From Rhizomicrobium sp. (lineage in GTDB: Bacteria; Pseudomonadota; Alphaproteobacteria; Micropepsales; Micropepsaceae): 32,000 bases of DNA. The DNA is taken from contig DASZBL010000024.1 in assembly GCA_035944195.1 (NCBI GenBank), positions 8,720 to 40,719 on the forward strand. Reading direction: 5' to 3'. The notes beneath the pieces were generated by a model. It was not told the origin of the DNA and made no database searches. It saw only the letters and a list, made by a program, of their open reading frames with translations. The translations under genes were made by a program, and so were the position numbers. Below, piece by piece: positions 13,438-32,000 of the stretch (position 1 is the stretch's first letter; each line of letters starts with the position of its first letter).

Positions 13438-13462
13438 CGTTATCAAGAAGAACTTCTGCCCG

Positions 13463-14620
13463 TCAGTCGCCTATGCCAACACTGATACTCGCGAAGGTGC
13501 CGAAGAAGCCACGGTTCTCGGATTTGCGCGCATCGATGCCGCCATCCATGGCGCCGAAGAAGAAGTCGGCCTTGTAGCCGAAGCTCATTTTGAAATCCTG
13601 CAACCGCCACGACAGCCCAACCGAACCTCCGAGATTGGGAACGGTCACGCCGCGCGAGCGCGCGTGTGTGGCGGCAAATTGCGCAGTTGTATGTGGCACC
13701 GCAGTTTGGCGGAAGACCGAGACAAGCCCATATCGCGCCGTCGATTGATGATGCGTCTTGGCTTTTTGCCGGCCGAACAAAAGGGCTCCGTTGATTGCCC
13801 AATCCGCTATGATCTCGCCATCCTGAACATTGCCGGCGAGCGGAACAGAGGATTTCCACGAGAGCGACGGTCCGACACCGCTGAAGCTGCGCTCGGCAAC
13901 CAGGCTCGCACGATTGGTGTGGAACGGCTGATTTAGGAGATGGAGGTGATAACCATAGTACGTTATGTATTTGTGCTTGAACTGCCAGTCCGGATCGGAT
14001 TTCAACGCGAAATTGGACATGCCCTTGAATTGCGCGAAGCGCATACCAACACTGACCGAGGACGAACCATCCTGATTTCCGAACAGACCAAGCCCCAAAT
14101 CTTTCCCCGCCTGGAAATCGAGAATGACGTGTTTTTCGCTGTTGTGCGCTTGCGTCTCCGCAAATCTATGCGCAACCGGACTATCCAATACTTTAATAGT
14201 AGGACGGCTAGTCAATGGATATTTGTAAGTCGGCACCGGGCTCGTCTGCTGGTCTTCATGCTTGTAGGACTTCGAACGGCCATACTGGATCGATGCGCTG
14301 AACGACCAATCGGAATTTTCGGGCTCGAAAGATAGCCTGCCATATTCATCGATGCTGTAGCGCGGCGGCTTTTCGAATTTCTGCGAAGGTTCGAAAATCG
14401 TCGGGCGGCTAGCCAGGAGCGGCGGTGCGAAAGTTTCCTGACCGTCCTGCAATTGGCTGAACTGCCCGCCGAGTTCAATCCAAACCGTCGCACGATCCAC
14501 ATCTTCCGCGCGGGCAAAACCAAGCGATGAGGTATATGCAAGCGCCAAGGCGGAGGCGCCAGTCAGTAACTTCCAGCGGATCGTAACGCGATTATCGTTT
14601 TTGTTGATGAGTTCGCTCAT
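13463..14620 (-). CDS. Putative outer-membrane beta-barrel (porin-like) protein, paralog 3
   Basis: Track ORF 13463..14638. Preferred start is ATG 14620 (MSELINKNDNRVTIRWKLL...) after GGGGGGTAGAA. Ends ...FFGTFASISVGIGD. Confidence 0.8.
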   Translation of the reverse strand: MSELINKNDNRVTIRWKLLTGASALALAYTSSLGFARAEDVDRATVWIELGGQFSQLQDGQETFAPPLLASRPTIFEPSQKFEKPPRYSIDEYGRLSFEPENSDWSFSASIQYGRSKSYKHEDQQTSPVPTYKYPLTSRPTIKVLDSPVAHRFAETQAHNSEKHVILDFQAGKDLGLGLFGNQDGSSSVSVGMRFAQFKGMSNFALKSDPDWQFKHKYITYYGYHLHLLNQPFHTNRASLVAERSFSGVGPSLSWKSSVPLAGNVQDGEIIADWAINGALLFGRQKAKTHHQSTARYGLVSVFRQTAVPHTTAQFAATHARSRGVTVPNLGGSVGLSWRLQDFKMSFGYKADFFFGAMDGGIDARKSENRGFFGTFASISVGIGD

Positions 14621-14631
14621 TTCTACCCCCC

Positions 14632-17600: not shown

Positions 17601-18042
17601 CGGTGATGGCAATCGGAACCGTTTGGATATCACCTTTGATCTTTGAGGATGTGACGACCACGCTTTCAATTCCCGCCGCCGCCGCTGCTGCCACCCTCAC
17701 TGGAGTTGTTGGCATCAATTCGTTGACGCGCTGGGAGGGTTCGTCGTGAACCACGGCGATGGCGCCTGTTGGCGTGCGATGCGGTGAAAATCCTGTACCT
17801 TCCAGGATGCGCGAGAGTGCGGCCGTCGCAGTGAGTTCGCCTTTCGCGCCTTTGGTGCGCGCGCCCTTGATGGCTTCATCCGACACAATCAGCGGAATGA
17901 CGGCCTGCATCGAATAGGCATTGAGCGCGGTCTCCAGATCGCCGCCCGGAATGTTGAAATTCGCGGCGAATGCGCTTGCGCTCAGCGCAATTGCCGACAC
18001 GCCCCCTGCGAGCGCGGATTTCAGAATGTTGGATTTTCTCAT
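14632..18042 (-). CDS. TonB-dependent receptor with STN signalling domain, ~1136 aa, paralog 3
   Basis: Track ORF 14632..18093. Preferred start is ATG 18042 (MRKSNILKSALAGGVSAIALSASAFA...) after AGGGGGGAGTG. It has the same plug and C-terminus as its paralogs, plus extra Cys/Gly/Thr-rich loop insertions. Ends VRVTKNW. Confidence 0.93.
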   Translation of the reverse strand: MRKSNILKSALAGGVSAIALSASAFAANFNIPGGDLETALNAYSMQAVIPLIVSDEAIKGARTKGAKGELTATAALSRILEGTGFSPHRTPTGAIAVVHDEPSQRVNELMPTTPVRVAAAAAAGIESVVVTSSKIKGDIQTVPIAITALSQEQLTSRQIAGGPDLVKEVPNLTFSKTNFSGYTIQIRGIGTQAISVTTDPAVAVALNDIPFIRNHFFEQEFFDVNQVEVLRGPQGTLYGRNATAGVVNVISAKPTDQFEAMASADFGNYHNRRFEGMVNIPVVDDRADLRIAGEWTKRNGYSTNALTSSPIDGRDLWSTRVTLAIKPSEKLQAWVVWEHCQESDDRLRTSKQLCKTAPIPTNINGAYVPPPSPPLGYSGAIYLSQSCLPVSLYDKGDPAHGDYGAFGVPNGYTLPYYEPLGFEGVPITAEFNAFDPYANQSQSTHLRVIETTVPPIYKAKNDTIELNADYSVAPDLTFTSQTGYNHDFLWSTEDYNRFNTRPGAFTVDDSGRNTTTAEPNLGVYYDSGKNCTTPGSFTPGEGYCSPIGIFCDPQLGCSDRLVAQDLNDEKAWQLSQEFRLASNFSGPLNFSIGGNFLHYETEENYYVFINSLTMAIYTSVHSGVVSADSDQTQPWVAGVSDNSNCMAGGLEPPNPNIPSHTGVEGQIPCGYIDPNPLSHLNNEGHNYFLSQNPYTLNSYAGFGEVYYNVANDLKLTGGLRFTDDQKHFLDIPSQLLTGGYGYSVTRIVDQKWNELTGRLATNWTPKLDFTDQTLVYGSYAHGYKAGGANPPGATLLEFNNTGISDPIHPLTFKPEFVDAYELGTKNTAFDGGLTLNGDVFFYNYKAYQISRIVDRTSINDNFDATVRGAEVEAMWEPTPGLKFNFAGDYEDTRIDNGQSSIDLMDRADLAEHPDWMVVKPFVTQASNCILPVYVMAALVTVAPPTGTGYGVRTVPGACSTAYQYGLDPVTYNTYKANPKFPDDYIDGAAGSLYDPGPYPGWDPATAPNHGEGWAKNLGGNELPNAPHFTTSLSADYTMPVSEDWAATAHTDLYWQSQSWARVFNDRPYDKIRGYSNVNLALILTSASGWQAMGYLKNVFNTTTITGDFLNSDDSGLTTNVFLTDPRLFGVRVTKNW

Positions 18043-18094
18043 CACTCCCCCCTTCGTGCGGCTTCTCGCCACTGATTGCATTTGCCCCCGCACC

Positions 18095-19078
18095 TCAGCG
18101 CGAGATCAGAATTTCGGCTCCGCGGTTCTGCACATGCAGGCGAAACACGGTTTGCACCGCGTCGGTGAACGCATGCACATCGCCGGTCGGAAATGTTCCG
18201 TCGATCGTCAACTGCTCGGCAGCAGGATCGGCGATGGTGAGTTTGGTCTGGTTGTAGCGGTTAAACTCCGCAGCCGCGGCGGCGAGCGTGGTGTGTTTGA
18301 AAATCAGCACCCCGCGCCGCCAGCTAAGCTCGTTGGAAAGCGCGCGCTGCACGCCTTTGGCGACGGACATCGTGTTCGCGGTTGCCGTTGCGACATCGCC
18401 TGCCGACAACATCGCCGATTGCGCGGGCGTTTGTTTGTCCGCGGCGTCCACCCAAACGCGGCCCTGCACTACGGCGACCTGAAGCCGCCCTGAATCGCTG
18501 CGCACCAGGAATTTCGTTCCGAGATCGGTGACGCGATGACCGCCCGCGATCACGATGAAAGGATGCACGGTGTCGTGCTTTACCTGAAAATAGGCCTCAC
18601 CCTTTTCCAGCCAGACCACGCGCTCCTGCGTCGTCATACGCGCGCGCAGTCGCGTGTTTGTGTTCAACTCGATGCGCGAACCGTCGGTGAACGCAATGGA
18701 TTCATGCCCGCCAACCGATGTCGAATAGACGCGATCTTCCGGCGCCGACAAGAAAAACGCTACGCCAGCACCCAAAACCACGATGACGGCTAACGCCGCC
18801 GCCATCCGGAAAAAATTGCCGGAGAGCCGCCCGCTCTGCGCAAATTGTTCGCGTGCGGGCGGGCGCAATGCACCCAAGAGATCGGTGTGTCCCCACGCGC
18901 CGTTCAGCCGCCAATAAGCGATGCGATGGGCCGGCGATTCTTCCAGCCAAGTATTCAACGCCGCCTTGCCGGCATCGTCCCAATCCTCGCGGTCACTGCG
19001 TTCAATCCAGGATGCCGCCTGCGCGTTGATTTCTCTCGCGCTCGCTTCGACTTTCTGTTGGGGGTTTGCGTCGCTCAT
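18095..19078 (-). CDS. FecR-like anti-sigma factor, paralog 3
   Basis: Track ORF 18095..19243 is over-extended into the sigma gene. ATG 19078 (MSDANPQQKVEASAREINAQAASWIERSDREDWDDAGKAALNTWLEESPAHRIAYWRLNGAW) recreates the ATGA overlap with the sigma stop that cassette 2 shows (cassette 1 has the equivalent 4-nt GTGA overlap). Confidence 0.9.
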   Translation of the reverse strand: MSDANPQQKVEASAREINAQAASWIERSDREDWDDAGKAALNTWLEESPAHRIAYWRLNGAWGHTDLLGALRPPAREQFAQSGRLSGNFFRMAAALAVIVVLGAGVAFFLSAPEDRVYSTSVGGHESIAFTDGSRIELNTNTRLRARMTTQERVVWLEKGEAYFQVKHDTVHPFIVIAGGHRVTDLGTKFLVRSDSGRLQVAVVQGRVWVDAADKQTPAQSAMLSAGDVATATANTMSVAKGVQRALSNELSWRRGVLIFKHTTLAAAAAEFNRYNQTKLTIADPAAEQLTIDGTFPTGDVHAFTDAVQTVFRLHVQNRGAEILISR

Positions 19079-19659
19079 GCGCGCTCCCCCAAAACTGCGA
19101 TGTCGCCATAGAGCGTGTTGGCGAGCACGGCGATGCCGTTCGCCAGATGTTCGGATACGGTGTCCTGACTGATGCCCATGCGCGCGGCGATTTCGGGCCG
19201 GGACAATCCTTCGATCCGCCTGAGCACCACCACTTCGCGGCAACGCGGCGGCAGACGATCGAGCGCGGTTTGCAGGCGGCGCAGCAAATCGCGCGCAATC
19301 ACATTGCGATCCGGTCCCGGTACTTCGATGGCGGCACCCAGCGCATCCAGATCGGCCACGGCCTCGATCGGCACGACGTGTTCGCGGCGCACGCGATTGA
19401 TGAGAAGATTGCGCGCGGTGCGCAGTAGAAATGCCTTGGGCTGCGCGGGAACTTCCTTCCGCGCCGCTTCATAGACCCGCACATAGACTTCCTGGCGCAA
19501 ATCCTCGATCTCGCTTTTGTTGCGCCAGCTCTGTTGGAGGAAATGCATCAATATCGACTCCAGCGGAAAAATCTCGCGCAGAAACCAGGCCTCCAGATCG
19601 GACGCGCTCATGCACGCACCCGAGGCGCCGCTCTCATTGATCTCCGGTCTCTCGGCCAT
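19075..19659 (-). CDS. ECF (FecI-type) sigma factor, cassette 3
   Basis: MAERPEINESGASGACMSASDLEAWFLREIFPLESILMHFLQQSWRNKSEIEDLRQEVYVRVYEA...; region 4 is REVVVLRRIEGLSRPEIAARMGISQDTVSEHL. Confidence 0.9.
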   Translation of the reverse strand: MAERPEINESGASGACMSASDLEAWFLREIFPLESILMHFLQQSWRNKSEIEDLRQEVYVRVYEAARKEVPAQPKAFLLRTARNLLINRVRREHVVPIEAVADLDALGAAIEVPGPDRNVIARDLLRRLQTALDRLPPRCREVVVLRRIEGLSRPEIAARMGISQDTVSEHLANGIAVLANTLYGDIAVLGERA

Positions 19660-20884: not shown

Positions 20885-21163
20885 ATGTCGAAGATCATGT
20901 TGAAATGTTTTGCCGTTGCGTTTGCCCTTTTTCCAGCGGCCGCATTCGCCGAGGAGCCATCGCAGCCTTCTCCGCCTGCTCCTTATGACGGCCCCTTACC
21001 CGCTGGCGGCGCAATGACGCGTGAAGCGGCGGCAGCCTGGTATGGTGATGGCAGAATTGTCGAGATCGGTGCTGGCCTGCTTATCGTCGGCGGGTTGCTT
21101 GTGGTTCTGTCGAACAACAATGGCAACTCGACACCAGCGACGACCACGACGCATGCCCCCTGA
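20885..21163 (+). CDS. Small exported/membrane-anchored hypothetical protein (92 aa)
   Basis: GGAGAGAGA RBS before the ATG. Signal peptide MLKCFAVAFALFPAAAFA, a Pro-rich segment, and a C-terminal hydrophobic helix IGAGLLIVGGLLVVL. A terminator hairpin follows. No family was recognised. Confidence 0.6.
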   Translation: MSKIMLKCFAVAFALFPAAAFAEEPSQPSPPAPYDGPLPAGGAMTREAAAAWYGDGRIVEIGAGLLIVGGLLVVLSNNNGNSTPATTTTHAP

Positions 21164-21194
21164 CGATTATCGAGGGCCGTATTTCCTGCAACAC

Positions 21195-21216
21195 GGCGGC
21201 TTCAGCCGCCGTTTTT
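21195..21216 (+). terminator. Rho-independent terminator for the plus-strand pair; the hairpin overlaps the stop codon of the convergent patatin gene
   Basis: GGCGGC-TTCA-GCCGCC (21195-21210) followed by GTTTTTGTTT. The loop TTCA contains the complement of the patatin TGA stop (21202-21204). Confidence 0.6.
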
Positions 21217-22353
21217 GTTTGGGGAGAAATCCGCCGGATCGATCAGGCGCTCCGCCGCCAGACGGCCGATCTCATAAGCACGCGGGATGATATCGGGATC
21301 GTCCATCAGGCGCAGTTTCGCGATTTCGGAATCCGAAACAGCGATATCCAGTTCCTGTTTCAGCCAATCGGCTTCCAATTGCACATCATAGCGCTGAAAG
21401 CCGAACAGCGGCGTCGCGAACGGCGTATTGTCGTTCGCAAGCGTGCCTATCTCGCTGTTGATGGGCGAAGAGGAATGCGTGCCCGATAGCCAATGCAGCA
21501 GCGTCAACGCGTGGGTTTCGGTATCGGCAACGAGCCCAGTCAGCGCATGAACCGCCAGCGCCGCCGAAGGCAGATGCTGGGTCGCGGCATGGGTGAGCCG
21601 TCGGCGATGTGATCCCGTTCCCACCGAGACAATGGAAAGATTTTCCTTTCCCAGCGGCCAGCGCAGCCCGAAACCATCCAGCGCCGCCATCAATAGAAGC
21701 TGCAGCGATGGATTGTTGTGCGGGCTGACGCCGCCATCGACAAAAAGTCCCGGCGGCGCGCCCTCGGCGATCATCAGCATTTCCGGATCGAAATAATGCG
21801 GCGCCGCGGTCGAGGCGCGCACCAGATGCGCGAGCTTGAATGCATGATTGCCGATATAGGAACTATCCTGCGGCGTTTGCCAATAATGCGCGCGCGGATT
21901 GTTGCTGATGATCCACGGGCTTCCCGTATCCATGCGCTTTGTCACCACCGCGAGGCCGGTGAGCAGATCGGGCGTATCCAGCGTGCGCTGGCCGATCACC
22001 GTATCGAGTTCGCGTTGCAGCAGCGTGGAATCGAATTTCGCTTGCAGCCCAATAACGCGCCACGAATTGTGTTGGAAAGCGCGCGGCCCCATGCGCATGT
22101 AGAAATCATGTACGTCCGCCGCGCTATGACCGAGCGCCAGCGCGGTTGCGATGATGGCGCCCGTCGATGTGCCGCCGATCAGGTCGAAATGGTCGCAGAG
22201 GCGAATCTTGCCGTTGGCGCTGAGAATTTTTTCGATGCGTTCGAGAAACGCAATGGTGATCGCGCCGCGCACGCCGCCGCCGTCGAGCGACAGGATGCGC
22301 TTCGGGCCAGGGCCGAAGAGATGGCGATCCCGGCTGGACATTTCATCGTTCAT
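21202..22353 (-). CDS. Patatin-like phospholipase (383 aa), last gene of the operon
   Basis: Oxyanion-hole motif LDGGGVRG (res 23-30), nucleophile elbow GGTSTG with Ser63 (nt 22165-22167), and catalytic Asp in FVDGGVSPHNNP (Asp206, nt 21736-21738). ATGA overlap with the upstream gene stop. Confidence 0.93.
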   Translation of the reverse strand: MNDEMSSRDRHLFGPGPKRILSLDGGGVRGAITIAFLERIEKILSANGKIRLCDHFDLIGGTSTGAIIATALALGHSAADVHDFYMRMGPRAFQHNSWRVIGLQAKFDSTLLQRELDTVIGQRTLDTPDLLTGLAVVTKRMDTGSPWIISNNPRAHYWQTPQDSSYIGNHAFKLAHLVRASTAAPHYFDPEMLMIAEGAPPGLFVDGGVSPHNNPSLQLLLMAALDGFGLRWPLGKENLSIVSVGTGSHRRRLTHAATQHLPSAALAVHALTGLVADTETHALTLLHWLSGTHSSSPINSEIGTLANDNTPFATPLFGFQRYDVQLEADWLKQELDIAVSDSEIAKLRLMDDPDIIPRAYEIGRLAAERLIDPADFSPNKNGG

Positions 22354-24272
22354 GGTAAGCGTTCCGCGACGGCGCGCTCATCTACCCACGCTGCGAACGC
22401 GCTGCCCAATGCATTTTCCATCGCTTCCATTTCTGCGGGTCTCGTGCCGGAGTGCAATATCGCCCAGACATGCGCGCCGCTCGCTTCTGCGGCGCGGCGC
22501 GCAACTTCAGCATCGGCGGGTTCGGCGAGCAGCACAAGATTTTCGCCGGGCGCGGCTTGCAAATTTGTTTCCGTGCCGCTGACAATCCGGTTTCGCCGGA
22601 TGGATTTTCCCGCGGCGGCAAGAATAGCAGCGATGCTGCGCACTAGATCGCGATTGGTTTGGCGCGCCTCTTCGCCAAGCGCGTCCCATTCCACCAGCAA
22701 AGGATGGCGGCGGATCAGGTCGTCGCGCACCGCGCCATATTGCCAGCCGAGCAGTCTCTGCTCGATGCACCAGCGCTGATGCTCCATTTGCGTGAATATC
22801 TCAATCTCGTCTTCTCGCAACGCAGCGCCCGCACCCGCCTCGCCGATGTCGAGCCCAAACCGCGCCAGCTTGACGGCAATATGATCGGCAAAAAGCCGGT
22901 TGGAGCGCTTCATGCGCTCCGGCAACCTATCCCATGATTGCGAATTGCCATGTCCGCGCGCATAGACTTCGTGGGTGGCGCGCGCCAGACGATCAACCGG
23001 ATTGTGCAGCAGTAATTGGGGATCGGCCATCAATCCGCCGCTGCCGAAAGTGACGAAACGGTCGCTCGACGGTCGGCGCTTTTCGGTTTTTTCGATGAAG
23101 GCTCCCAGTTCCGGCCGCTTCTGCGCGCGCGCATAAATGGGCACATTGAAAAGCCCCGCCAGATCCGATTGCCGCCGGAAATCGAGCGCTGCTTCGATAT
23201 TGATTGTGTCCTGCCCGGTCGTGATCACCACCGCGTCCGGCGCTCCTTCAGAAAGTAACCCGGATATGAATTCGCGATCGTCTGCGGGCCCGAATTCACG
23301 CTCGTGGAACGACAGATCGGCCAGATCGAACAGCGCCGGCCATTGCCGCTTGATCGCAGCAGTTGCGGCAGCGATATTCTTGTCGGCAATCGCAACGGAA
23401 AGCCTCGTTCCAGGAATGGCGAAATAGCCCTGCACTGCTTGAATCAGAATTTCGAGCCCCATCTTGCCGAGACCCACCATCACCAGCCGCGGCTTCACGG
23501 ACGGAAGCGGCAGCAATTTGCGCCGGGCAGACCAGCCATTGAGCAGCGCACGCGCGGCACTCTCATAGAAATTCACAACGATGAATTCAGCCTTGTCCGT
23601 GCTTAGCGAGGCGGTGTACCCCGCAATCGCATGCAGCAGCCAGGCGTCGCGCACTTCGCACAGGATGCGTAGCGGTTTTCCGGCAGGCCGCGCAGCACAG
23701 GCATCGCGCGCGCGCAGTGCTATCTCAAGATTCACGGAATCGGACCCGCAGGAAACCACCAGCGTGGTTGCCTTCAGCAATCCGGCGAGTTTCAGCAGAT
23801 GCACGTCCGCGGCGCTGCCTTGCAGCACGGGAACGCCCGCCAATTCCACCGGCATCGAATTTTCGCAAGCCGCATCGGATTCGATGGCGACGACATGCTG
23901 CCTGGCCGCCCTTTGCCCGAGCGCGATGGTGCGCCCGGTTTGTCCCAATCCGCTCACGATCACATGGCCGCGCGCGCGACGTGCCAGCGCCACGCGCATG
24001 TCGCGGCGGATATGCAGCAGCAGCAATTTCGCGGCGCCGAAAAGCGCGATGCCCGGCACCAGCCATTGCGCAATCGCCAATTGCCAGGGATGCGAATAGC
24101 TGGCGCCGCCGCGAACGAGGCTGAAAGCGCGCAGCATCTTGTCGACCGGCGTGACGACATGACAATCGCTGCAAACGGAAAATCCCCAATAGGCCAGACC
24201 GAGCGCGATCGCGGCGATGGGTATAAAGACGTACCAGTTGCTGGGACTGGAGGGACTTTTTTGCGGCGTCAT
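22350..24272 (-). CDS. Membrane protein (640 aa): 2 TM helices + two Rossmann (TrkA-N/RCK-like) domains + RyR-like repeat module + short C-terminal alpha/beta extension
   Basis: TM1 WYVFIPIAAIALGLAYWGF and TM2 LAIAQWLVPGIALFGAAKLLLL. GxGxxG motifs VIVSGLGQTGRTI (nt ~23934-23951) and LVMVGLGKMGLEI. RyR-like module (res ~425-552, nt 22617-23000): LARATHEVYA...WDRLPERMKRSNRLFADHIAVKL...EIFTQMEHQRWCIEQRLLGWQYGAVRDDLIRRHPLLVEWDALGEEARQTNRDLVRSI. ATGA overlaps at both ends. Confidence 0.85.
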   Translation of the reverse strand: MTPQKSPSSPSNWYVFIPIAAIALGLAYWGFSVCSDCHVVTPVDKMLRAFSLVRGGASYSHPWQLAIAQWLVPGIALFGAAKLLLLHIRRDMRVALARRARGHVIVSGLGQTGRTIALGQRAARQHVVAIESDAACENSMPVELAGVPVLQGSAADVHLLKLAGLLKATTLVVSCGSDSVNLEIALRARDACAARPAGKPLRILCEVRDAWLLHAIAGYTASLSTDKAEFIVVNFYESAARALLNGWSARRKLLPLPSVKPRLVMVGLGKMGLEILIQAVQGYFAIPGTRLSVAIADKNIAAATAAIKRQWPALFDLADLSFHEREFGPADDREFISGLLSEGAPDAVVITTGQDTINIEAALDFRRQSDLAGLFNVPIYARAQKRPELGAFIEKTEKRRPSSDRFVTFGSGGLMADPQLLLHNPVDRLARATHEVYARGHGNSQSWDRLPERMKRSNRLFADHIAVKLARFGLDIGEAGAGAALREDEIEIFTQMEHQRWCIEQRLLGWQYGAVRDDLIRRHPLLVEWDALGEEARQTNRDLVRSIAAILAAAGKSIRRNRIVSGTETNLQAAPGENLVLLAEPADAEVARRAAEASGAHVWAILHSGTRPAEMEAMENALGSAFAAWVDERAVAERLP

Positions 24273-24952
24273 GCGGGCTCTTTCTGGCGCGACGAAAGGC
24301 AGCCACGCTCCAGCGCCATCATGTTGGCACCCAGGCTTTCGGCTCCCGCTTTGTCGTTCGATGTCACCAGTAGCGCTACGTGCTGCACGGCGACGAGGCG
24401 CTTGAGATCGGCCTGCAATTCCGCGCGCGCTTCGGGATCGAGACCTTCGAACGGCGCGTCGAGCATGACGATGTGCGGTTCGGTGATGAGCGCGCGCGCC
24501 AGGAGCGCCCGCTTGGTGAGACTGGCGGAAATCTCATTGCTCTGCGCATTGCGCCACGGATCGAGATCAAAATTGATCAGGCAATGTTCCAGCCGCTTCT
24601 CGATTTCGCTGTCGGCGAGTTCCAGTTTGCAAAGCGGGAAGGCGAGATTTTCCGCGAGCGTCAGATCATGCAGCAGCGCGCCGTTTTCCAGCACAAGCCC
24701 GATATGACGGCGCAGCTTGTGCCATTCATGTTCCGGCAAATTCTCGGCCGCCTCGCCCGCGATCTGCAAGTGACCTTCCGAGGCGCGCTCGAGGCCCGCG
24801 AGCAGGCGCAACAAAAGCGTCTTGCCTGAGCCGCTGCGCCCGACAATAGCCATGCATTGGCCGCGTTCCAGCGTGAAGGAAATATCGTCGAGCACGCGTG
24901 CGCCACCGCGCATGAGCGCCAGGCCGCGCGCCTCGATCATGATCTCGCTCAT
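24269..24952 (-). CDS. MlaF-like ABC ATPase subunit with degenerate catalytic motifs (227 aa)
   Basis: Track ORF 24269..25747 is over-extended across the permease gene. ATG 24952 (MSEIMIEARGL...) overlaps the permease stop as ATGA. Walker A GRSGSGKT is intact (nt 24818-24841). Signature is ISASL rather than LSGGx (24518-24532). Walker B is IVMLDAP, with Ala where the catalytic Glu should be (24455-24457). H-loop is VTSND, with Asn for His (24356-24358). Confidence 0.88.
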   Translation of the reverse strand: MSEIMIEARGLALMRGGARVLDDISFTLERGQCMAIVGRSGSGKTLLLRLLAGLERASEGHLQIAGEAAENLPEHEWHKLRRHIGLVLENGALLHDLTLAENLAFPLCKLELADSEIEKRLEHCLINFDLDPWRNAQSNEISASLTKRALLARALITEPHIVMLDAPFEGLDPEARAELQADLKRLVAVQHVALLVTSNDKAGAESLGANMMALERGCLSSRQKEPA

Positions 24953-25740
24953 GCGCCTGCCCCGGCGAAGATCGCGGCAGCGCCGAATATCGCGAGCAGC
25001 GAGATCACGAAGGTCCGCCACGCAGCGGCTTCGAGCGTTTGCGGATCGCGGCCTGCGCCGCTGCCTTCGGCAGAGGCGATGCCGAGCGCGAGCATCGCAT
25101 AAACTTCCACGCGCAGGAACCCAAACCAGAAATCGCTGCGTGCGCCTTCGGCAAAAACGATCGTCGTATAGCGGGCAACAGGAATCGCCTCGAATTGCTG
25201 TAGCGTGAGCGCGGCTGCCAAATGCGCGATGCCGTCTCCCCAAACCAGCAATGCCGCCGCCGCAAAGAGGAATGCGAGCAAGCTCGCGGGCAATACATGA
25301 TCGGCCGGGTCCACACCCATCAGGCGCAGGGAATCCACTTCGCCGCCTGCGATCATGCGCCCAATTCGCACGGCGAGTGCCACGCCCGAGCGCCCGGCGA
25401 CGAAAATCCCGATCAGCACCGGCATCACTTCGCGCATCAGTGCCGAGCGCAACGCTCGCAATAGCGGTTCTTCCAGATTCACAACATGAAACGCCCGCGA
25501 CACGCTGAAGGCTAGCACCAGCCCCGTCAGCGCGGCCAGCATGGTGACGATGGGCAAGGGACGCAATGCGGTGTCGGAGAGCGCATCCACCGTGCGGCGG
25601 CGCGCAAACCTGTCGCCGCGCAGCAGCGCCGGAAGGCCGACAAATGCGGCTTGCAGGAAAAATGCGAACAGGCCGACATTCTCCACGCCACCCTGAATCG
25701 CGCGACCGCCGGCATTTCTGATGTCCCCGATCATTGCCAT
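24949..25740 (-). CDS. MlaE-like ABC transporter permease
   Basis: Polytopic hydrophobic protein of MlaE-like size (263 aa). It carries the MlaE-type core REVMPVLIGIFVAGRSGVALAVRIGRMIAGGEVDSLRLMGVDPADHVLPASLL. The start is 25740, or 25734 which would give an ATGA overlap with the upstream stop. Confidence 0.85.
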   Translation of the reverse strand: MAMIGDIRNAGGRAIQGGVENVGLFAFFLQAAFVGLPALLRGDRFARRRTVDALSDTALRPLPIVTMLAALTGLVLAFSVSRAFHVVNLEEPLLRALRSALMREVMPVLIGIFVAGRSGVALAVRIGRMIAGGEVDSLRLMGVDPADHVLPASLLAFLFAAAALLVWGDGIAHLAAALTLQQFEAIPVARYTTIVFAEGARSDFWFGFLRVEVYAMLALGIASAEGSGAGRDPQTLEAAAWRTFVISLLAIFGAAAIFAGAGA

Positions 25741-27323
25741 GGCGCACGCCTCAGAGCACCGTTCAAATCGAGTTCGATTATGCGAGCAGCGCTTTGCGAA
25801 GTGGCACTTCCGATTTGAATGACGAAATCGGCTGCGGCGGCAGACGACACCAAAATGGTTTCGGCCCTCCCCGCCAGAGCGATTGCTTCGGGCGGAAGAT
25901 TCTCGTTCGGCTGAACGATCACGCTTAATTTGGCTTTGGCGAGGGCGATCTCGGCGGCGCGGCGCTGAACGGGGGATGCAAGCGCCGTGCGCAATACAAG
26001 CACGCGCTCCGGGTAGCGCTTCGTCAAATCATCTAATAGATACGGAAAGCCTGTGTCGAAGCCACTTTGGGGCGCGCCGCCGCCATGAAGCGCCAGCGTG
26101 AGATCGCGCAGGATCGTCTGCTTCACGCGGTCGAGTTGGGCGGGAATGGCGCGCACCGAAAGCCGGTCGAGATCGCGGATTTCGGGCGTCAGCGATTCAT
26201 AGGGAACCAGCAGCGGCGTCAGCTTCGCGGCATCGTCGCGCGTTTCGCCATAGCGCCAGCCATCCAGCATCTGCACGGCAGCCCAGCGCTGATGCTCCAT
26301 TTCGGCGAGCGCTTCCCGTTCTTCCGTCGTGAACGCGAAGCGCGGGCCGCCATCCGCCGGAACGATGTGGCAGGAAATCGCCGCGAGCTTGCAGGCGATG
26401 TGATCGGCCTGATGGCGCGACGCGGCGCGGAAGCGCTCGGGCAGCGCGTCCCATGGCTGCATGCTGGGACGAATGCCGATTGTGTGGCCCGCTTGCCGCC
26501 GCTCTTCGAGATAGAGTTCGTGAATGGCCTGCGCCTGCAAATCGGCGGGGTCTGAAAACAGCGCCGCCACGGCCTCGCGCCAATCGGTTTGCAGCACGGC
26601 AATCGTTCCGGCGGGTGCTGGGCCAGCGCAAGGAAGCCAGTAGACCGGCACAAACCAATCGGGATGTTTCTGCGCATTCCATATCGCAGCATCGGCGACA
26701 TAGATAGCGGATGCAGCGCCATCCCAGTTTTCGGTTGCCGCAAGCGTTCCGATTTCTTTCAGCGCGGGCAACGAAGATGTAAGCGCATCGAGCCAGCGTT
26801 CGCCGCCCACAATCGTCGCGCGCGGCTTGACGCCGGGCAAATGCATCATGCGGAAAAGCTGAAGCAGAATTTGCTCGGCTTCCGCGCCCGTGCCGAAAAT
26901 AACCGGCTGCGGTGCTTGCGCGTCATAGTTCAACCGGCCGAATGGATGATCGAGCAGCAGACGCCGCGCCATGCGCTGCGATGCCGATAGTGGGCGCACG
27001 CGCAAACCATTGCCGGTTTCTGAATCGAAATCCTGTATGGCAGTGAGCGCGGCTTGCGTTTCCGCGGCAATGGCGAAAATTGTTTGCTGCCCGGAGATCT
27101 GCCAGCCTGCAGCCGCCTTACGCGCTGCATCGAGATCGGTCTGTTCGTCGCCGCTGGCGAATATCACGCAGGTGGGTGATTTTTGATCAGAAAGCGCCGC
27201 AACATCGGGCAAACGCGTGACGTGATAGCCTGCGCCTATCGCGCCTTGCACAATCGGCTCAACCGCACCCACAACGACAAGCTCGCCGCCCGGCTTAATC
27301 GCGCGTTGCAGCCATTTCAGCAT
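25731..27323 (-). CDS. Soluble paralog (530 aa): two degenerate Rossmann-like domains + RyR-like repeat module + C-terminal alpha/beta extension
   Basis: Track ORF 25731..27686 is over-extended across the lipoprotein gene. ATG 27323 (MLKWLQRAIKPGGELVVVG...) overlaps the lipoprotein stop by 7 nt. RyR-like module (res ~262-396, nt 26136-26540): QAIHELYLEE...WDALPERFRAASRHQADHIACKL...ALAEMEHQRWAAVQMLDGWRYGETRDDAAKLTPLLVPYESLTPEIRDLDRLSVRAIP. It is collinear with the 22350-24272 protein. No TM helix was seen. Confidence 0.82.
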   Translation of the reverse strand: MLKWLQRAIKPGGELVVVGAVEPIVQGAIGAGYHVTRLPDVAALSDQKSPTCVIFASGDEQTDLDAARKAAAGWQISGQQTIFAIAAETQAALTAIQDFDSETGNGLRVRPLSASQRMARRLLLDHPFGRLNYDAQAPQPVIFGTGAEAEQILLQLFRMMHLPGVKPRATIVGGERWLDALTSSLPALKEIGTLAATENWDGAASAIYVADAAIWNAQKHPDWFVPVYWLPCAGPAPAGTIAVLQTDWREAVAALFSDPADLQAQAIHELYLEERRQAGHTIGIRPSMQPWDALPERFRAASRHQADHIACKLAAISCHIVPADGGPRFAFTTEEREALAEMEHQRWAAVQMLDGWRYGETRDDAAKLTPLLVPYESLTPEIRDLDRLSVRAIPAQLDRVKQTILRDLTLALHGGGAPQSGFDTGFPYLLDDLTKRYPERVLVLRTALASPVQRRAAEIALAKAKLSVIVQPNENLPPEAIALAGRAETILVSSAAAADFVIQIGSATSQSAARIIELDLNGALRRAPWQ

Positions 27324-27934
27324 CGCGCGGATTGCGGCGCGTTGACCGCGCTCGCGGCCATGTCTTGTGTGAGATGCACAAGCACCTGACGAAATGCTTC
27401 GTCGAACGCCGCCTCGATTCCTGCCGCACCATCGCCGGCCCGCGGCTGCTGTGCGCAATAAGAGCCCATCAGAAACGCCTGCCGCTGCGGCCCTTTGAGA
27501 ATGGTCACTTCCAGATCGACAATCGCCGTGCCGTCTGCGGAAAGCTCGAAGCGGTCGAGCCGCGCCGAGAGCATGTAGTCCGCAATTCCCGGCAGATCGG
27601 GCGCAAATACGGCGTCCGCGATCTTTGCCGCGCGCAATACCTGCGTGACGACGATGGAAGCGGCCTGCGGCGGGGTTTCCTCCCACAGGAAACTTGCCGA
27701 TTGCTTGCGCTCGTTGGGCGCTTGCGCGTCGAAATAGACCAGACGCCGCTCGCCCAGAAGACCGCGCGCCTGAAATGGCTGCACCTGGAGCGCGCCTTGC
27801 AAATGCGTGGCGGCAACAGGCATTTCGGACGGCGCATCCAGCCGCATGTTGCGGCTTTCCGGTGCGGTGCTGCAGGCCGCCAGCATCGACGCCGCAAACA
27901 GCACAACCAATCGAAAGGAAGAAATGTTTCGCAT
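27317..27934 (-). CDS. ABC-type transport auxiliary lipoprotein (PqiC/YmbA-like, DUF330-type)
   Basis: Lipoprotein signal peptide with lipobox LAAC (Cys21, nt 27872-27874). About 200 aa, positioned directly after an MCE gene as is usual for this family. Begins 3 nt after the MlaD-like stop. Confidence 0.75.
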   Translation of the reverse strand: MRNISSFRLVVLFAASMLAACSTAPESRNMRLDAPSEMPVAATHLQGALQVQPFQARGLLGERRLVYFDAQAPNERKQSASFLWEETPPQAASIVVTQVLRAAKIADAVFAPDLPGIADYMLSARLDRFELSADGTAIVDLEVTILKGPQRQAFLMGSYCAQQPRAGDGAAGIEAAFDEAFRQVLVHLTQDMAASAVNAPQSARC

Positions 27935-27937
27935 GCG

Positions 27938-28867
27938 CTATCTCGGTTTGGTGTCGGCTGGATCGCCAAGCGCGCGGCCGCTGACCATCGCGCGTGGATC
28001 GTCGCGAAGCTTGGCGGTGATCTCCTTCAGATCGGCACTCGCCGCCTGCATGTTCGCAGCGATGGAGGCCATCGATGTCGCGGTCACGCCCAGAATATAG
28101 CGCAGATCGGTGACCGACGAACCCACCGGCTCCGCATTTTTGTGCACCAGCCCGTTCATTTCGGTGGCAGCGAGACTTGCCTGCTTGGACGTGGCCGCAA
28201 GATTGTCGATCATCGATGCGATCTGGCGCTGGCGCTTGTCGTTCAGCAAGCCGCGCGCGGTTTCGCTGATAGCCTGCACATTGGTCAGCGTTGCGTTCAT
28301 GCGCGCGATGAGCGCGACCGATCCGTTCGCCGAAGCGCCGCCGGCCTTAATCTCTTCCGGCGTCGGTGCCAGCGCACGCAGCACGGTGTTCACGCGTTCA
28401 ACCGTATCGCGGGTGGTGTTGATCGTCTGCAGGGTCAGCTCGATCATGCTGGGATGATGCCCGCAACCGCGCAATTGCGCGCCCGGCAGCGAAGGGTCGT
28501 AAGTGGGTTCGGGACAATCCTTGCCGCGCGCGATGCTCAAGGTCGCGGGTTGCAGCGGATTGGGCGCGTCGATCACCAGCCCGACATCGCGCATATCCTC
28601 CGTCTGCCAATCGGGATCGAGCCGCACGCGCACCAGAAACCGCCGCTCGCGCAGATGCTGCTCGATGCGCGTGACATGGCCGATCACGAAGCCTTCATCT
28701 TTTACCGCCGCGCCTTCGCCCAGATTGGCAACGTTCTTGAATACCGCGACATAAGGATGGCGCCGGTCCAGCACCTCTGGCGCGAAGGCAGCGACAAGCG
28801 CCACCACGACCAGAATGGCGATGGTTGCAAGGCCAAGCCGGAATTGCAGAACAGGATCAGGACGCAT
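27938..28867 (-). CDS. MlaD/MCE-domain protein (309 aa), first gene of the operon
   Basis: N-terminal TM LGLATIAILVVVALVAAF. MCE-domain signature YVAVFKNVANLGEGAAVKDEGFVIGHVTRIE...RVRLDPDW. A long helical C-terminal region. Confidence 0.85.
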   Translation of the reverse strand: MRPDPVLQFRLGLATIAILVVVALVAAFAPEVLDRRHPYVAVFKNVANLGEGAAVKDEGFVIGHVTRIEQHLRERRFLVRVRLDPDWQTEDMRDVGLVIDAPNPLQPATLSIARGKDCPEPTYDPSLPGAQLRGCGHHPSMIELTLQTINTTRDTVERVNTVLRALAPTPEEIKAGGASANGSVALIARMNATLTNVQAISETARGLLNDKRQRQIASMIDNLAATSKQASLAATEMNGLVHKNAEPVGSSVTDLRYILGVTATSMASIAANMQAASADLKEITAKLRDDPRAMVSGRALGDPADTKPR

Positions 28868-28991
28868 GGAATATGATCGACCTTCGACCTCTGTGGTCTA
28901 TCATGATTGGCGCGCCGGTTGAACCCGCTTCCAATTCGCGCTGCGGCATGCTGGACTGAGCGGGCCTCATTGAATTGATCCCCTCATTTCC

Positions 28992-31900
28992 ATGCAGCCA
29001 TTGCGGATTTTTGTCTCTTCGCCCTCGGATGTGAATCCGGAGCGCGCGGCTGCCGCCCGTGTGATCGACAGGCTGGGCCGCGAATTCGGCGGTTTCTTCG
29101 CCATCCAGGCCGAATTGTGGGAGCAGGAGCCGCTGCGCGCCACGGCGGATTTTCAGGGGCAGATCCCGCGCCCCTCAGAAGCCGATATCGTGCTGGTGGT
29201 GGTGTGGTCGCGATTGGGCACGCGGCTGGCGCCGGGCAGCTTCAAGGGCTCACTGAGCGGCGGTGCGGTGACCGGCACCGAGTGGGAATTCGAGGATGCC
29301 GCCCGCAGCTTTCGCGAGCGCGGCGTGCCCGATCTGCTCTTCTATCGCAAGACCGCGCGCATCGACATCGCACTTGGCGATGATAATGCCATCGAGCAGC
29401 GGCGCGAAGAAAAGCGTCACCTCGATCAATTCCTGCAGAGCTGGTTCTTCACCGAGACGGCGGAGTTCAAGGGCGCGTTTTCGTCTTTCACCACCACGCA
29501 TGAATTCGAACTCATCGTTGAGCAGCATCTGCGCAAGCTTATTCAGGCGCGCGTGAATGCGCTGGATGTGGCCTCCGCTCAGGCCCCGCCGGCGCGCTGG
29601 CAGGGCGGCTCGCCGTTCCGCGGGCTCGAGCCGTTCGACGTGGAACATGCGGGAATTTTCTACGGCCGCAGCCGCGCGCGCATGGAAGTGCGCGAAGCGT
29701 TGACAACGCGCGCCGCGCAAGGCGCTGCGTTTGTCTTGCTGCTCGGGATGAGCGGTTCGGGAAAATCCTCGCTGGTGCGCGCGGCGTTGATCCCAGATCT
29801 CGCCGTGCCCGGCATGATCGAGCAGGTGGGATTGTTCCGCTATGCGCTGCTGCGGCCTTCGGATTCGCCTGCCGATCCGCTCGCCGCATTGGCCGAGGCG
29901 CTGATTGCGGATTCGGCGCTGCCCGAATTGGAAAGCATGGGTTGGAATGCCGCGCGAATTGCAGAGCAGCTTGGCTCCGCGCCTGAAGATATGCTGCCGG
30001 TTCTCGAAGAAGCATTGGAAAAGGCAGGCGTCGCAGCGGGCCTTCTGGAAGGCGCAAAGGCGCGGCTGTTGCTCGCTGTCGATCAACTCGAAGAATTGTT
30101 CACGCTGACGGGCCTTGAACCCGAAACGCGCGACCGCTTTATCAATGCGCTGCATGTTCTGGCGCGCAGCGGCACGGTGTGGGTCATCGCCACAATGCGC
30201 AGCGACATGTTCCATCATCTGGCGTCGGCGCCGCGGCTCGCGGAACTGGCGGAAGGTGTGGGCCAATATCATTTGCTGCCGCCGCAGCCTTCGGAGATTT
30301 CGCAGATCATCCGCGAGCCGGCATCGGCAGCGGGCCTGCGCTTCGAGATCGACCCGAAAACCAATGTCGGGCTCGATGAAGTTTTGCATGAGGCGATGGA
30401 AGATGATCCCGCGGCGTTGCCGCTGCTCGAATTCACGCTGGACGAATTGTTCAAGACGCGCACGGCGCGCGGCGTGCTGACTTACGAAGCCTATAATCGC
30501 CTCGGCGGAATCGAGGGCGCGCTGGCGCGGCGCGCGGAAGATGTTTTCGCGGGCCTTCCCGGCGATACGCAGAATGCCTTTGCTTCCGTCGCGTGTGCGC
30601 TTGTCGTGCAGCAGCGTGGCAGCGGCGGCGGATTCGCGGCGCGGCGCGCACCCTGGAGCGAATTTGCGAACGATTCCGCGCGCGCGGCATTGGTGGATGC
30701 TTTCGTCGCGGCGCGCCTCTTCGTGACCGATGCGGGCGAAGGCAGTGCGCGCACCATTCGCGTGGCGCATGAAGCGTTGTTCCGTTGCTGGCCTCGCATG
30801 CGCGAGGCGCTGGAGCGCGATGCGGCATTTCTCGTCGCGCGCGAAAGGCTGGCAACCGCTACTGAGCGCTGGCTTGCCGAAGACCGCGCGCCCGATTTCC
30901 TGCTGCAAGAGGGCCGCGTTCTGGCGGAAGCCGAAGAATTGCTGCAGACGCGCGGCAATGACCTCGACCCCACCGTACAGGAATTCATCGCCACTTCGGC
31001 AGAGGCCGTACACAGGCGGCGCACGCGCGGTTTGCGCTGGGCCCGCGCAATTGCTGCGGGGTTTGCGCTGATTGCCATAATCGCGGGGGGGGCCGGATGG
31101 TTCGCCTTGCAAAATCGCGACGCGGCCGAGCACGCGCGCAATGAAGCGGTTGAGCGGCGCGACGGCGCACTGCGCTCGGAAAGTTTTTTCCTGGCGGCAC
31201 TTTCCTACAAATCGACCAAATCGGGCGATCCTGTCAGCGGCGCGCTGCTGGCGCGCGCAGCCATGCCTCGCGAGATTGCCAAACCCGACCGCCCCCTGGT
31301 GAATGAAGCGCGCGATGCGCTGGCCTACGCGCTGGCGAGTTTGAAAGAGGAACGCGGCGTTATCCGCCATTCGGGCGACAAGGTGCAGGCGTCTTTTTTC
31401 CCCAACGGCACGGTCGGAAGCATCGGCGGCAATGATCCGCTGCGTCTGTCGCGCGTGCCTGACGGCAAGGAGATCGCGCATTTCGGAGACCACGCGCCCG
31501 GCAATGCATGGATCAACGACGATGGCAGCCAGATCATTCTGCTCGATGGCGAAAATCTGAAATTCTTCGACAGCGCGACGGGAAAACAGACAAGACAGCT
31601 CCCGCTGGCCAAGCGCGCCGACGGTCTGGTGAATGTCATTATAGATACACCCCTGTCGCGCGCAGCACTTTATTATGCGGGCGCTGGCGCGGAATTGATC
31701 GCGCTGCCGCATGGGCGTGTGCTGACGAAATTCGGCAATGCTTCGCCCGTTCTGCTGATGCAGCTTGCGGGCAAATCCTTGCTGTGGGCCGATGTGGCGG
31801 GCGATTTGGTTTTGCAGAACGCAAGCGACGGCGGCGGGATACGCCCGCTTGTCGGACATAAAGGGATGGTGACGGCGATTGCGTTGTCGCCCGATCTCGC

Positions 31901-32000
31901 TGCGAGCGGCGGCATCGATGGAACGGTGCGGCTTTGGTCGATAGCGGATGGAAGCCCGCGCGGCGTGTTCCAGCATGGCAGCCCGGTGCTGAATCTTCAG
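28992..32000 (+). CDS. TIR-like/DUF4062-like N-terminal domain + STAND P-loop NTPase (nSTAND1-like) + TM helix + WD40 repeats; partial (open at the right window edge)
   Basis: Not in the ORF track because there is no stop in the window. I read frame 0 from ATG 28992 to 32000 codon by codon over most of its length and found no stop (1003 codons). N-terminus: MQPLRIFVSSPSDVNPER...ADIVLVVVWSRLGT...GTEWEFEDA...PDLLFYRK. NTPase entry motif SPFRGLEPFDVEHAGIFYGR. Walker A GMSGSGKSS (29745-29768). Walker B LLLAVDQLEELF (~30066-30101). TM WARAIAAGFALIAIIAGGAGWFAL (~31038-31112). WD40 blade GHKGMVTAIALSPDLAASGGIDGTVRLWS (~31854-31940). Confidence 0.85.
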   Translation, partial: MQPLRIFVSSPSDVNPERAAAARVIDRLGREFGGFFAIQAELWEQEPLRATADFQGQIPRPSEADIVLVVVWSRLGTRLAPGSFKGSLSGGAVTGTEWEFEDAARSFRERGVPDLLFYRKTARIDIALGDDNAIEQRREEKRHLDQFLQSWFFTETAEFKGAFSSFTTTHEFELIVEQHLRKLIQARVNALDVASAQAPPARWQGGSPFRGLEPFDVEHAGIFYGRSRARMEVREALTTRAAQGAAFVLLLGMSGSGKSSLVRAALIPDLAVPGMIEQVGLFRYALLRPSDSPADPLAALAEALIADSALPELESMGWNAARIAEQLGSAPEDMLPVLEEALEKAGVAAGLLEGAKARLLLAVDQLEELFTLTGLEPETRDRFINALHVLARSGTVWVIATMRSDMFHHLASAPRLAELAEGVGQYHLLPPQPSEISQIIREPASAAGLRFEIDPKTNVGLDEVLHEAMEDDPAALPLLEFTLDELFKTRTARGVLTYEAYNRLGGIEGALARRAEDVFAGLPGDTQNAFASVACALVVQQRGSGGGFAARRAPWSEFANDSARAALVDAFVAARLFVTDAGEGSARTIRVAHEALFRCWPRMREALERDAAFLVARERLATATERWLAEDRAPDFLLQEGRVLAEAEELLQTRGNDLDPTVQEFIATSAEAVHRRRTRGLRWARAIAAGFALIAIIAGGAGWFALQNRDAAEHARNEAVERRDGALRSESFFLAALSYKSTKSGDPVSGALLARAAMPREIAKPDRPLVNEARDALAYALASLKEERGVIRHSGDKVQASFFPNGTVGSIGGNDPLRLSRVPDGKEIAHFGDHAPGNAWINDDGSQIILLDGENLKFFDSATGKQTRQLPLAKRADGLVNVIIDTPLSRAALYYAGAGAELIALPHGRVLTKFGNASPVLLMQLAGKSLLWADVAGDLVLQNASDGGGIRPLVGHKGMVTAIALSPDLAASGGIDGTVRLWSIADGSPRGVFQHGSPVLNLQ

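Follow-up and report, generated by a model that had tools for sequence, protein, structure and literature searches.

The locus described here raises the question of what a phospholipid-transport machine of the Mla/MCE type is doing in one operon with ryanodine receptor (RyR)-like proteins and a patatin phospholipase. It lies in a stretch of 32,000 nucleotides from Rhizomicrobium sp. (GenBank assembly GCA_035944195.1, contig DASZBL010000024.1, positions 8,720 to 40,719 of the forward strand), hereafter called the window, and comprises seven tightly packed open reading frames (ORFs) on the minus strand (21202-28867) for an MCE protein, an ABC_trans_aux lipoprotein, a soluble RyR protein, an MlaE-type permease, an ATP-binding cassette (ABC) ATPase, a 2TM-TrkA_N-RyR protein anchored by two transmembrane helices (2TM), and a patatin (g1 to g7; Table 1). 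A preliminary description of the sequence had offered two readings, a stress or abortive-infection module with patatin as its effector and a machine for envelope lipid homeostasis. The answer that we favour, with our confidence evenly poised, is that the seven genes together with a divergently transcribed STAND NTPase gene (g0) form an envelope-embedded conflict or abortive-infection system of eight genes and not a housekeeping lipid pump.

The seven same-strand genes were found with the coordinates and junctions previously given for them. Only 3 nt separate g1 from g2, g2 and g3 overlap by 7 nt, g3 and g4 by 10 nt (4 nt if g4 starts at 25734), and ATGA overlaps join g4 to g5, g5 to g6 and g6 to g7; public gene calls place the start of g5 at Met5, leaving an 8-nt gap to g4. 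A single transcript with fixed stoichiometry, as previously suggested, is plausible given these gene overlaps. The boundaries of the unit had been drawn correctly around the operon, with the omission of the STAND gene, which begins 124 bp ahead of g1 on the opposite strand. This gene is conserved beside the operon in every case in which the flank is available (L003, L004, L005/L010 and L081), and the unit should therefore be counted as eight genes.

Table 1. Coordinates of the features of the g0-g7 locus in the window, with strand and basis of assignment.
Feature	Position	Strand	Basis
g0 STAND NTPase	28992..32000 (runs beyond window)	+	nSTAND1, WD40, transmembrane helix
Divergent intergenic region g0/g1, 124 bp	28868..28991	.	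alignment of five orthologous regions
g1 MCE protein, 309 aa	27938..28867	-	Pfam MlaD and orthologue profile
g2 ABC_trans_aux lipoprotein, 205 aa	27317..27934	-	PF03886 and lipobox
g3 soluble RyR/Rossmann protein, 530 aa	25731..27323	-	Pfam RyR and hhalign
g4 MlaE-type permease, 263 aa	24949..25740	-	Pfam MlaE
g5 MlaF-like ABC nucleotide-binding protein, 227 aa	24269..24952	-	ABC_tran and ATPase alignment
g6 2TM-TrkA_N-RyR protein, 640 aa	22350..24272	-	Pfam TrkA_N, RyR
g7 patatin-like phospholipase, 383 aa	21202..22353	-	Pfam Patatin
GC-rich hairpin ACGGCGGC-TTCA-GCCGCCGT	21193..21212	.	terminator-like site, 8 pairs, 7 G-C

The preliminary description had proposed looking for the same gene neighbourhood in other genomes, and the linkage is indeed conserved in at least five lineages, in each of which a STAND gene is followed divergently by MCE, lipoprotein, g3, MlaE, ATPase, g6 and patatin genes, at g3 identities of 43% to 87%. 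The closest relatives, L081/L082, share the gene order at 84-96% identity, followed by L003 (52%; its contig ends inside g6), L004 (45%, complete) and L005/L006/L010 (43%, complete in L010, which is another metagenome-assembled genome [MAG] of Rhizomicrobium). Such recurrence shows that the arrangement is not due to chance. The g1-g5 junctions are tight across lineages and the junctions from g5 through g6 to g7 are 18-51 nt long in L003 and L004; the flanks are common to the closest pair only and unrelated in the diverged lineages. The hosts are Rhizomicrobium and related soil Alphaproteobacteria, and the system is exceedingly rare, with nine relatives of g3 among 5.8 billion proteins and ten relatives of its N-terminal module among 1.84 billion representative proteins. 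Neighbouring genes were clustered from gene calls guided by GC content at third codon positions (GC3), some of which have mis-set starts; the key loci were taken from public gene calls.

The Mla/MCE-type core stands up to profile searches. The previous assignments of MlaE, ABC_tran and ABC_trans_aux are borne out by Pfam: g4 matches MlaE (PF02405) at 115 bits over a cut-off of 22.5, with about five to six hydrophobic segments and scores under the NCBIfam MlaE equivalog and subfamily cut-offs; g5, which has no hydrophobic segment, matches ABC_tran at 94 bits; and g2 matches ABC_trans_aux (PqiC/YmbA-type) at 47 bits and carries a lipobox (LAAC21) with Ser at +2, so that it is probably an outer-membrane lipoprotein. 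As a single sequence, g1 falls short of the Pfam cut-off for MlaD (22.8 bits versus 25.1), and its earlier assignment to MCE proteins is sustained instead by a profile of its orthologues, which we accept as sufficient because it matches the solved proteins Mce1B (1.7e-7) and MlaD (8.5e-6); the orthologue in L095 carries a PF02470 annotation. In g1, an N-terminal transmembrane anchor (aa 11-29) is followed by a divergent MCE domain, into which a Cys-containing stretch (DCPEP...GCGHHP) is inserted, and the C-terminal region is long and helical. Among the eight cluster products, which alone were searched, none matched the STAS (MlaB), MlaC or MlaA families.

What sets this core apart from the working Mla transporter assumed in the preliminary description is its ATPase. 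Alignment to solved ABC ATPases shows that g5 retains an intact Walker A motif (GRSGSGKT, aa 38-45) and has S142-A-S-L at the place of the SGGQ signature, D165-A166 at the place of the D-E of Walker B and, in this window, N199 at the place of the H-loop His. Among the motifs of a competent ABC ATPase (Walker A, LSGGQ, D-E and the H-loop His), g5 therefore holds Walker A only. The catalytic Glu (replaced by A, S or T) and the signature glycines are lost in all seven lineages linked to STAND, TIR or SLATT-like genes (the window, L082, L003, L004, L010, L094 and L095), which undercuts the assumption of a functional transporter for every one of them; the ATPases of a distant marine clade (L083, L084 and L086) retain LSGG, D-E and His. 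Substitutions of E to Q or E to A are standard hydrolysis-deficient mutants of ABC proteins, and by established ABC enzymology a homodimer with two degenerate sites should not hydrolyze ATP. We predict from these motifs that g5 binds ATP without hydrolyzing it, and their loss in all conflict-linked lineages makes ATP-driven transport unlikely there.

The divergent gene g0 (in full L001:863-5281 on the minus strand; the window holds aa 1-1003 of 1472) encodes a DUF4062-like alpha/beta domain (aa 1-200), an nSTAND1 domain (aa 208-634; PF20703, 304 bits) with the Walker A motif GMSGSGK258S, a transmembrane helix (aa 684-704; window 31041-31103) preceded by the basic cluster RRRTRGLRWAR, and then WD40 propellers. 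It thus combines the two hallmarks of STAND proteins, a P-loop module of the nSTAND1 type and a C-terminal sensor of superstructure-forming repeats. The match to DUF4062 is weak (20.1 bits with a cut-off of 24.7), and homologues carry PF13271. A TIR-like N-terminus was considered and is not supported: the AlphaFold2 model is good (predicted local distance difference test [pLDDT] 84.7), yet Foldseek returned only generic flavodoxin-like or caspase-like folds with TM-scores below 0.4. Helix and basic cluster are kept in all g0-like proteins examined, including those of Acidobacteriota and Verrucomicrobiota, and the WD40 repeats lie beyond the helix, so that they are predicted to be periplasmic. 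This part of the protein also diverges faster, with 75-79% identity to L081 beyond the helix compared to 95-96% in the cytoplasmic part and 34-49% compared to 67-76% for L003 and L004, as one would expect if the sensor were diversifying. As for an effector linked to the STAND protein, patatin is conserved in the divergent operon, and the DUF4062-like N-terminal domain has no assigned function.

Two of the operon's products, g3 and g6, are the soluble and the membrane-anchored paralogue that the preliminary description had recognized. Pfam finds RyR (PF02026) in both (59 bits in g3, 44 bits in g6) and TrkA_N in g6 (56 bits), and hhalign aligns g3 aa 13-492 with g6 aa 106-639 (probability 100%, E 7e-42), which shows g3 to be an unanchored counterpart of the entire cytoplasmic portion of g6. 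In g6, a 2TM hairpin with a CxxC outer loop is followed by a TrkA_N Rossmann domain (GLGQTG), a second alpha/beta domain (GLGKMG), a pair of RyR repeats and a C-terminal alpha/beta domain; g3, which has no hydrophobic segments, combines a pair of RyR repeats with two Rossmann-like alpha/beta domains and, at the C-terminus, a further alpha/beta domain, and its first glycine-rich loop is degenerate (VVGAVEP compared to CGLGxTG). The RyR repeats of both proteins are arranged in tandem, as in the Repeat12 domain of ryanodine receptors, whose structures g3 matches by sequence profile (2e-25, in two stretches) and by Foldseek (6uhs, 8.5e-4; 155-177 columns aligned to Repeat12 structures). According to their descriptions, several of these structures were solved with ATP, ADP or AMP-PCP bound. 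A confident fold for the N-terminus of g3 was not obtained from its model of moderate quality (pLDDT 65), in which RyR Repeat12 was the single significant structural match, and we assign the Rossmann domains because hhalign aligns this region to the TrkA_N region of g6. We also considered g6 as a K+ channel, a reading that is not supported since the protein has neither a TVGYG-like filter nor a match to Ion_trans_2; some channel-like role is still conceivable.

The last gene of the operon encodes a patatin (Pfam, 96 bits) with no hydrophobic segments and, as previously noted, with an intact catalytic center composed of the oxyanion loop GGGVR, the nucleophile in GTS63TG and the Asp in D206GG, all of which are kept in L004, L010 and L038. 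Its nearest solved relatives are the CBASS effector CapV (8zr9, 8.6e-19) and then a cUMP-AMP-activated lipase; it matches the PADLOC phospholipase effector model at 9e-46, and its best NCBIfam match is CBASS_lipase at 124 bits, below the cut-off of 200. On these similarities, g7 is predicted to be a cytoplasmic effector phospholipase that in all likelihood acts like CapV, though the cluster is no CBASS.

Around the five-gene core of MCE, lipoprotein, RyR, MlaE and ATPase genes, partner genes are exchanged. At L095:7435-15208 and also in L096, the divergent gene encodes a TIR_2 protein of 235 aa and is followed by the core with a degenerate ATPase; 58 nt after the ATPase gene and on the same strand lies a gene for a CN_hydrolase and NAD_synthase protein of 680 aa (NadE-type), and this NAD synthase beside a TIR-linked core may be meaningful or a coincidence. 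In L094, the ATPase gene is followed by a 589-aa member of a protein family that we call C1 (blastp 8.5e-57), which consists of DUF4231/SLATT-like membrane proteins, 11 of 13 members matching DUF4231 and a few SLATT_1 or SLATT_3. We further scanned species-representative genomes for the g6 family and found 71 loci, of which 45 are non-redundant and have a full-length gene; neighbours were scored within 7 kb. C1/SLATT-like genes are the most frequent companions (26 of the 45 loci), followed by STAND NTPases of the nSTAND1-WD40 or DUF4062-NACHT-TPR type (15) and TIR proteins (14), with Mla genes in four loci and patatin in three, L038 being a further case of the latter. These SLATT-like, STAND and TIR neighbours place the RyR/Rossmann family habitually among domains typical of nucleotide-signalling immune systems. 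No PADLOC model matched g6 or C1.

The pairing of a 2TM-TrkA_N-RyR gene with a DUF4231/SLATT-like gene of about 630 aa constitutes a widespread and apparently undescribed set of its own, often accompanied by TIR and/or STAND genes. It was observed in L007/L011, L012, L013, L021, L024-L033, L037, L054 and other loci (with the g6 match at ca. 10001-11970 in most), and its hosts include Alphaproteobacteria, Acidobacteriaceae, Acidimicrobiia, Verrucomicrobiota and Chloroflexota. Among the Acidobacteriaceae (L024, L027-L031, L033 and L035; e.g., L030:6061-10149), the RyR/SLATT-like/TIR genes adjoin genes whose products (ca. 1300-1490 aa) carry a signal peptide and match nothing in Pfam or PADLOC (cluster C6, eight non-redundant loci). 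In an alphaproteobacterial MAG (L038:10001-16432), the g6-family gene is in pieces, possibly as a pseudogene or through an assembly error, and is followed by a C1/SLATT-like gene, a lipoprotein-like protein of 415 aa (cluster C48) and a patatin that shares 51% identity with g7; the g7-type patatin is thereby linked to a version of the system that contains SLATT.

The marine clade (L083:7694-16205, L084 and L086:3191-10415) has a different gene order, with a g3-like RyR gene followed by MlaE, MlaF, MCE and lipoprotein genes, a gene for a protein of 452 or 460 aa and one for a membrane protein of 306 aa. The glycine loops of its g3-like protein are intact, and its surroundings are housekeeping-like, with pilBCD-like and coaE-like genes. 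Just upstream in L083 and L084 lies a gene for a bestrophin-family channel together with a divergent patatin of 270 aa (3.9e-23) that retains GASAG and DGG and has a degenerate Gly-rich loop. We take this clade as the likely ancestral form, still competent in transport, out of which the conflict-linked version would have arisen.

Several known systems share parts of this inventory. With Mla and Pqi (MlaFEDB and PqiABC of E. coli), the cluster has in common an MlaE permease, an MlaF-like subunit, a transmembrane-anchored MCE protein with a helical extension and a PqiC/YmbA-type lipoprotein, but its ATPase is devoid of the catalytic Glu, LSGG and (in this window) the H-loop His; it also differs from Mla in the absence of MlaA, MlaB and MlaC and from both systems in its gene order, with MCE and lipoprotein genes first and a RyR/Rossmann gene inserted before MlaE, in its links to STAND, patatin, TIR or SLATT-like genes, and in its extreme rarity, whereas Mla and Pqi are near-universal in diderm bacteria. 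CBASS with CapV-type effectors shares a patatin of the kind activated by cGAMP or cUMP-AMP, to which g7 is most similar, and the predicted outcome of membrane phospholipid hydrolysis. We nevertheless rejected an assignment to CBASS, since no CD-NTase/SMODS cyclase is encoded in g0-g7 and the patatin scores under the CBASS_lipase cut-off; neither Cap2 nor Cap3 is present in the cluster, and upstream of the patatin, signalling would fall to a STAND NTPase and RyR/Rossmann proteins instead. Zorya is a defence based on an inner-membrane complex derived from MotAB, and the parallel to it would be one of concept without any sequence relationship, namely that a housekeeping envelope machine (MotAB or MlaFE-MCE) may have been reused as a sensor of perturbation. 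Thoeris-like and SLOG/SLATT/TIR systems, the latter being nucleotide-signalling systems that Burroughs and colleagues are said to have described in 2015, resemble the sister loci in which the RyR/Rossmann family is paired with TIR and DUF4231/SLATT-like 2TM proteins, but the cluster in the window has neither a TIR nor a SLATT gene, and the RyR/TrkA_N protein is not known as a component of them.

With STAND/NLR-like immunity (Avs, bNACHT and nSTAND1 systems), the cluster shares the P-loop STAND NTPase, its fast-evolving C-terminal repeat sensor and, as far as gene neighbourhood goes, the association with putative death-type effectors. It differs in that the sensor repeats of g0 lie beyond a transmembrane helix and are predicted to be periplasmic, that the effector is a separate gene and that g0 belongs to a membrane system of several genes that includes an MCE complex; what the cluster shares with STAND conflict systems is generic features only. 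The nSTAND1 systems have been described as conflict systems preponderantly of multicellular prokaryotes (Kaur et al. 2020, PMC7159879), and in that article RyR and ABC are unmentioned and "MCE" occurs as an author name in the reference list only. A search of PADLOC-DB v2.0.0 gave no system-level match, by which a known defence system is ruled out, and nothing for g1-g4 and g6; its generic matches were the phospholipase effector (g7), the ABC-like mad3/mad8 (g5) and, weakly, PDC-S60 (g0). Our literature searches, in some of which eukaryotic RyR papers or author names swamped the results, found nothing joining RyR domains and MCE/Mla with STAND, TIR or patatin. This agrees with the statement in the preliminary description that no described system of such composition was known: the composition of g0-g7 is new, and its function is what we infer.

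How might such a system work? The MCE protein, lipoprotein, MlaE permease and pseudo-ATPase would form a trans-envelope complex that serves as a non-hydrolyzing scaffold, lipid conduit or tripwire. In concert with the periplasmic WD40 sensor, this MCE complex could report that the envelope is disturbed, for instance by a phage attaching or injecting its genome, or by membrane damage of another kind, and the signal may be relayed by oligomerization of the STAND protein or by nucleotide binding of the RyR/Rossmann paralogues, which would couple sensing to the patatin. Once released or activated, the patatin would hydrolyze inner-membrane phospholipids and thereby stop growth or kill the cell. 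In the sister systems, the same core would be wired to a TIR or SLATT-like membrane protein in place of the patatin. A more specific variant, which we think unlikely though worth stating, casts the MCE complex with its pseudo-ATPase as a tripwire and the RyR/Rossmann proteins as receptors of a nucleotide signal that gate interchangeable executioners (patatin, TIR or SLATT-like proteins); the signal would possibly be NAD-derived given the recurrent linkage to TIR and the NAD synthase in L095.

The conflict reading corresponds to the first of the two readings in the preliminary description, which had overlooked the STAND gene, and comparative genomics has strengthened it: we favour it because a STAND NTPase is linked to the operon, because TIR, SLATT-like and patatin partners are exchanged around the core, and because no solved protein is closer to the patatin than CapV. 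Further points in its favour are the synteny of g0-g7 across lineages, the identity gradient along the STAND protein, the neighbours of the g6 family, the loss of catalytic residues from the ATPase in all conflict-linked lineages, the rare and patchy distribution, and the adenine nucleotides bound in solved Repeat12 domains. Several observations count against it. The window's neighbouring genes are ECF-sigma/FecR/TonB-receptor cassettes and not a defence island, carriers are exclusively MAGs or metagenome contigs, and the search for carriage on mobile elements gave no phage matches, no viral-contig relatives and only remote plasmid matches. The predicted periplasmic position of the WD40 propellers has a hydrophobicity scan and the positive-inside rule as its whole basis, a Foldseek search with the N-terminal DUF4062 domain of g0 was uninformative, and STAND-WD40 proteins occur in non-immune signalling, too. 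Furthermore, the marine clade possesses a competent ATPase, and the module may therefore have started out in lipid handling. This last point leads to the second reading, in which an Mla/Pqi-like transporter would pass phospholipids between the membranes to the patatin, with the RyR/Rossmann proteins as MlaB-like metabolic regulators responding to NAD(H)/ATP and the STAND-WD40 protein as a regulator of envelope stress. We see a small chance that it is right. The MlaE, MCE and ABC_trans_aux assignments hold, the housekeeping-like context of the marine loci with their intact ATPase and the patatin and bestrophin genes adjoining in L083 and L084 agree with it, as do the envelope and uptake genes around the cluster, and Mla is functionally linked to the phospholipase PldA in E. 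coli. Yet its straightforward version is undercut by the loss of the ATPase motifs in every lineage linked to STAND, TIR or SLATT-like genes, and the absence of MlaA, MlaB and MlaC, the position of the patatin in a CapV-like effector clade, and the extremely rare and patchy occurrence of the system with variable flanks also speak against it. Swapping of patatin, TIR and SLATT-like genes is not what one would expect of a pathway for lipid turnover. Under this reading, the cluster would count as an MCE transporter that departs strongly from the usual type.

Alternatively, the locus could consist of two modules without functional coupling, a degenerate Mla-like g1-g5 unit with a RyR regulator and a separate conflict module of STAND, g6 and patatin, for which we see a slim chance. 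Consistent with such a division, 41 of the 45 non-redundant g6-family loci have STAND, TIR or SLATT-like genes and no Mla genes, neither g6 nor STAND accompanies the g3-Mla core in L094, L095 and the marine clade, and the g5-g6 and g6-g7 junctions of L003 and L004 are looser than those of g1-g5. But in all five lineages the STAND gene on the g1 side and g6 and patatin on the g5 side bracket the Mla core, g5, g6 and g7 overlap by ATGA in the window, the core gains TIR or SLATT-like genes where g6 and patatin are absent, and g3 inside the core is paralogous to g6 outside it. It is very improbable, in our judgement, that the system instead serves developmental or kin-conflict cell death of morphologically complex Alphaproteobacteria with a self-derived or neighbour-derived envelope signal as the trigger. 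The soil-dwelling Rhizomicrobium and its relatives as hosts and the failure to find a link to phages or mobile elements are compatible with this idea, and so is the preponderance of nSTAND1 systems in multicellular prokaryotes described in PMC7159879. Sequence cannot separate such a role from antiviral defence, and the repertoire of TIR, SLATT-like and patatin proteins is that of known anti-phage systems (PADLOC matches).

If the conflict reading is right, an Mla/MCE machine of a type thought to serve purely the lipid homeostasis of the outer membrane would have been turned into the core of a conflict system by loss of ATP hydrolysis, and surveillance of an envelope lipid bridge would be a new principle of sensing in bacterial immunity. 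It would also give a first functional context to bacterial RyR repeats, for which structures have been solved and to which no physiological role is assigned in the literature that we searched, and define a wider 2TM-TrkA_N-RyR family with SLATT-like, TIR and STAND genes across Alphaproteobacteria, Acidobacteriota, Actinomycetota and other phyla. The ATPase would be a natural and conserved "E-to-A" variant useful for studying non-catalytic roles of ABC modules. Should the RyR/Rossmann proteins be nucleotide receptors of a tripwire, the ability of animal ryanodine receptors to bind nucleotides through their RyR repeats would have its origin in an immune sensor module of prokaryotes. Even as a lipid-homeostasis machine, the cluster would be without precedent among Mla-type systems in its regulators and would have a phospholipase of its own.

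Regarding non-coding elements, the promoters of both g0 and g1 are presumably located in the intergenic region between them. This region is poorly conserved, and in the search for a conserved operator we found, in four of the five orthologous loci, a short and partly conserved CAATCATG-like motif ca. 45-50 nt before the start of g1, which is not convincing. Sigma-70-like matches at 28877-28904 (plus strand) and 29035-29007 (minus strand) are weak and not more frequent than in shuffled sequences; a scan for promoters and terminators within the operon stayed at chance level and is therefore uninformative. At the other end of the operon, where convergent genes meet, the perfect 8-bp hairpin, which has a plus-strand T-run, overlaps the stop codon of the patatin gene. 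A convergent 92-aa ORF (20885-21163) ends just before it, and the hairpin is a candidate terminator at the operon's 3' end that may be bidirectional.

Elsewhere in the window (725-19659, minus strand), we observed three tandem cassettes that each encode an extracytoplasmic function (ECF) sigma factor, a FecR anti-sigma factor, a TonB-dependent receptor and a protein of about 390 aa, one of which shows weak likeness to the major outer-membrane protein of Legionella. The receptors (1112, 1112 and 1153 aa) carry an STN signalling domain, and those of the first two cassettes are 70% identical, so that this array for trans-envelope signalling and uptake seems to have expanded recently.

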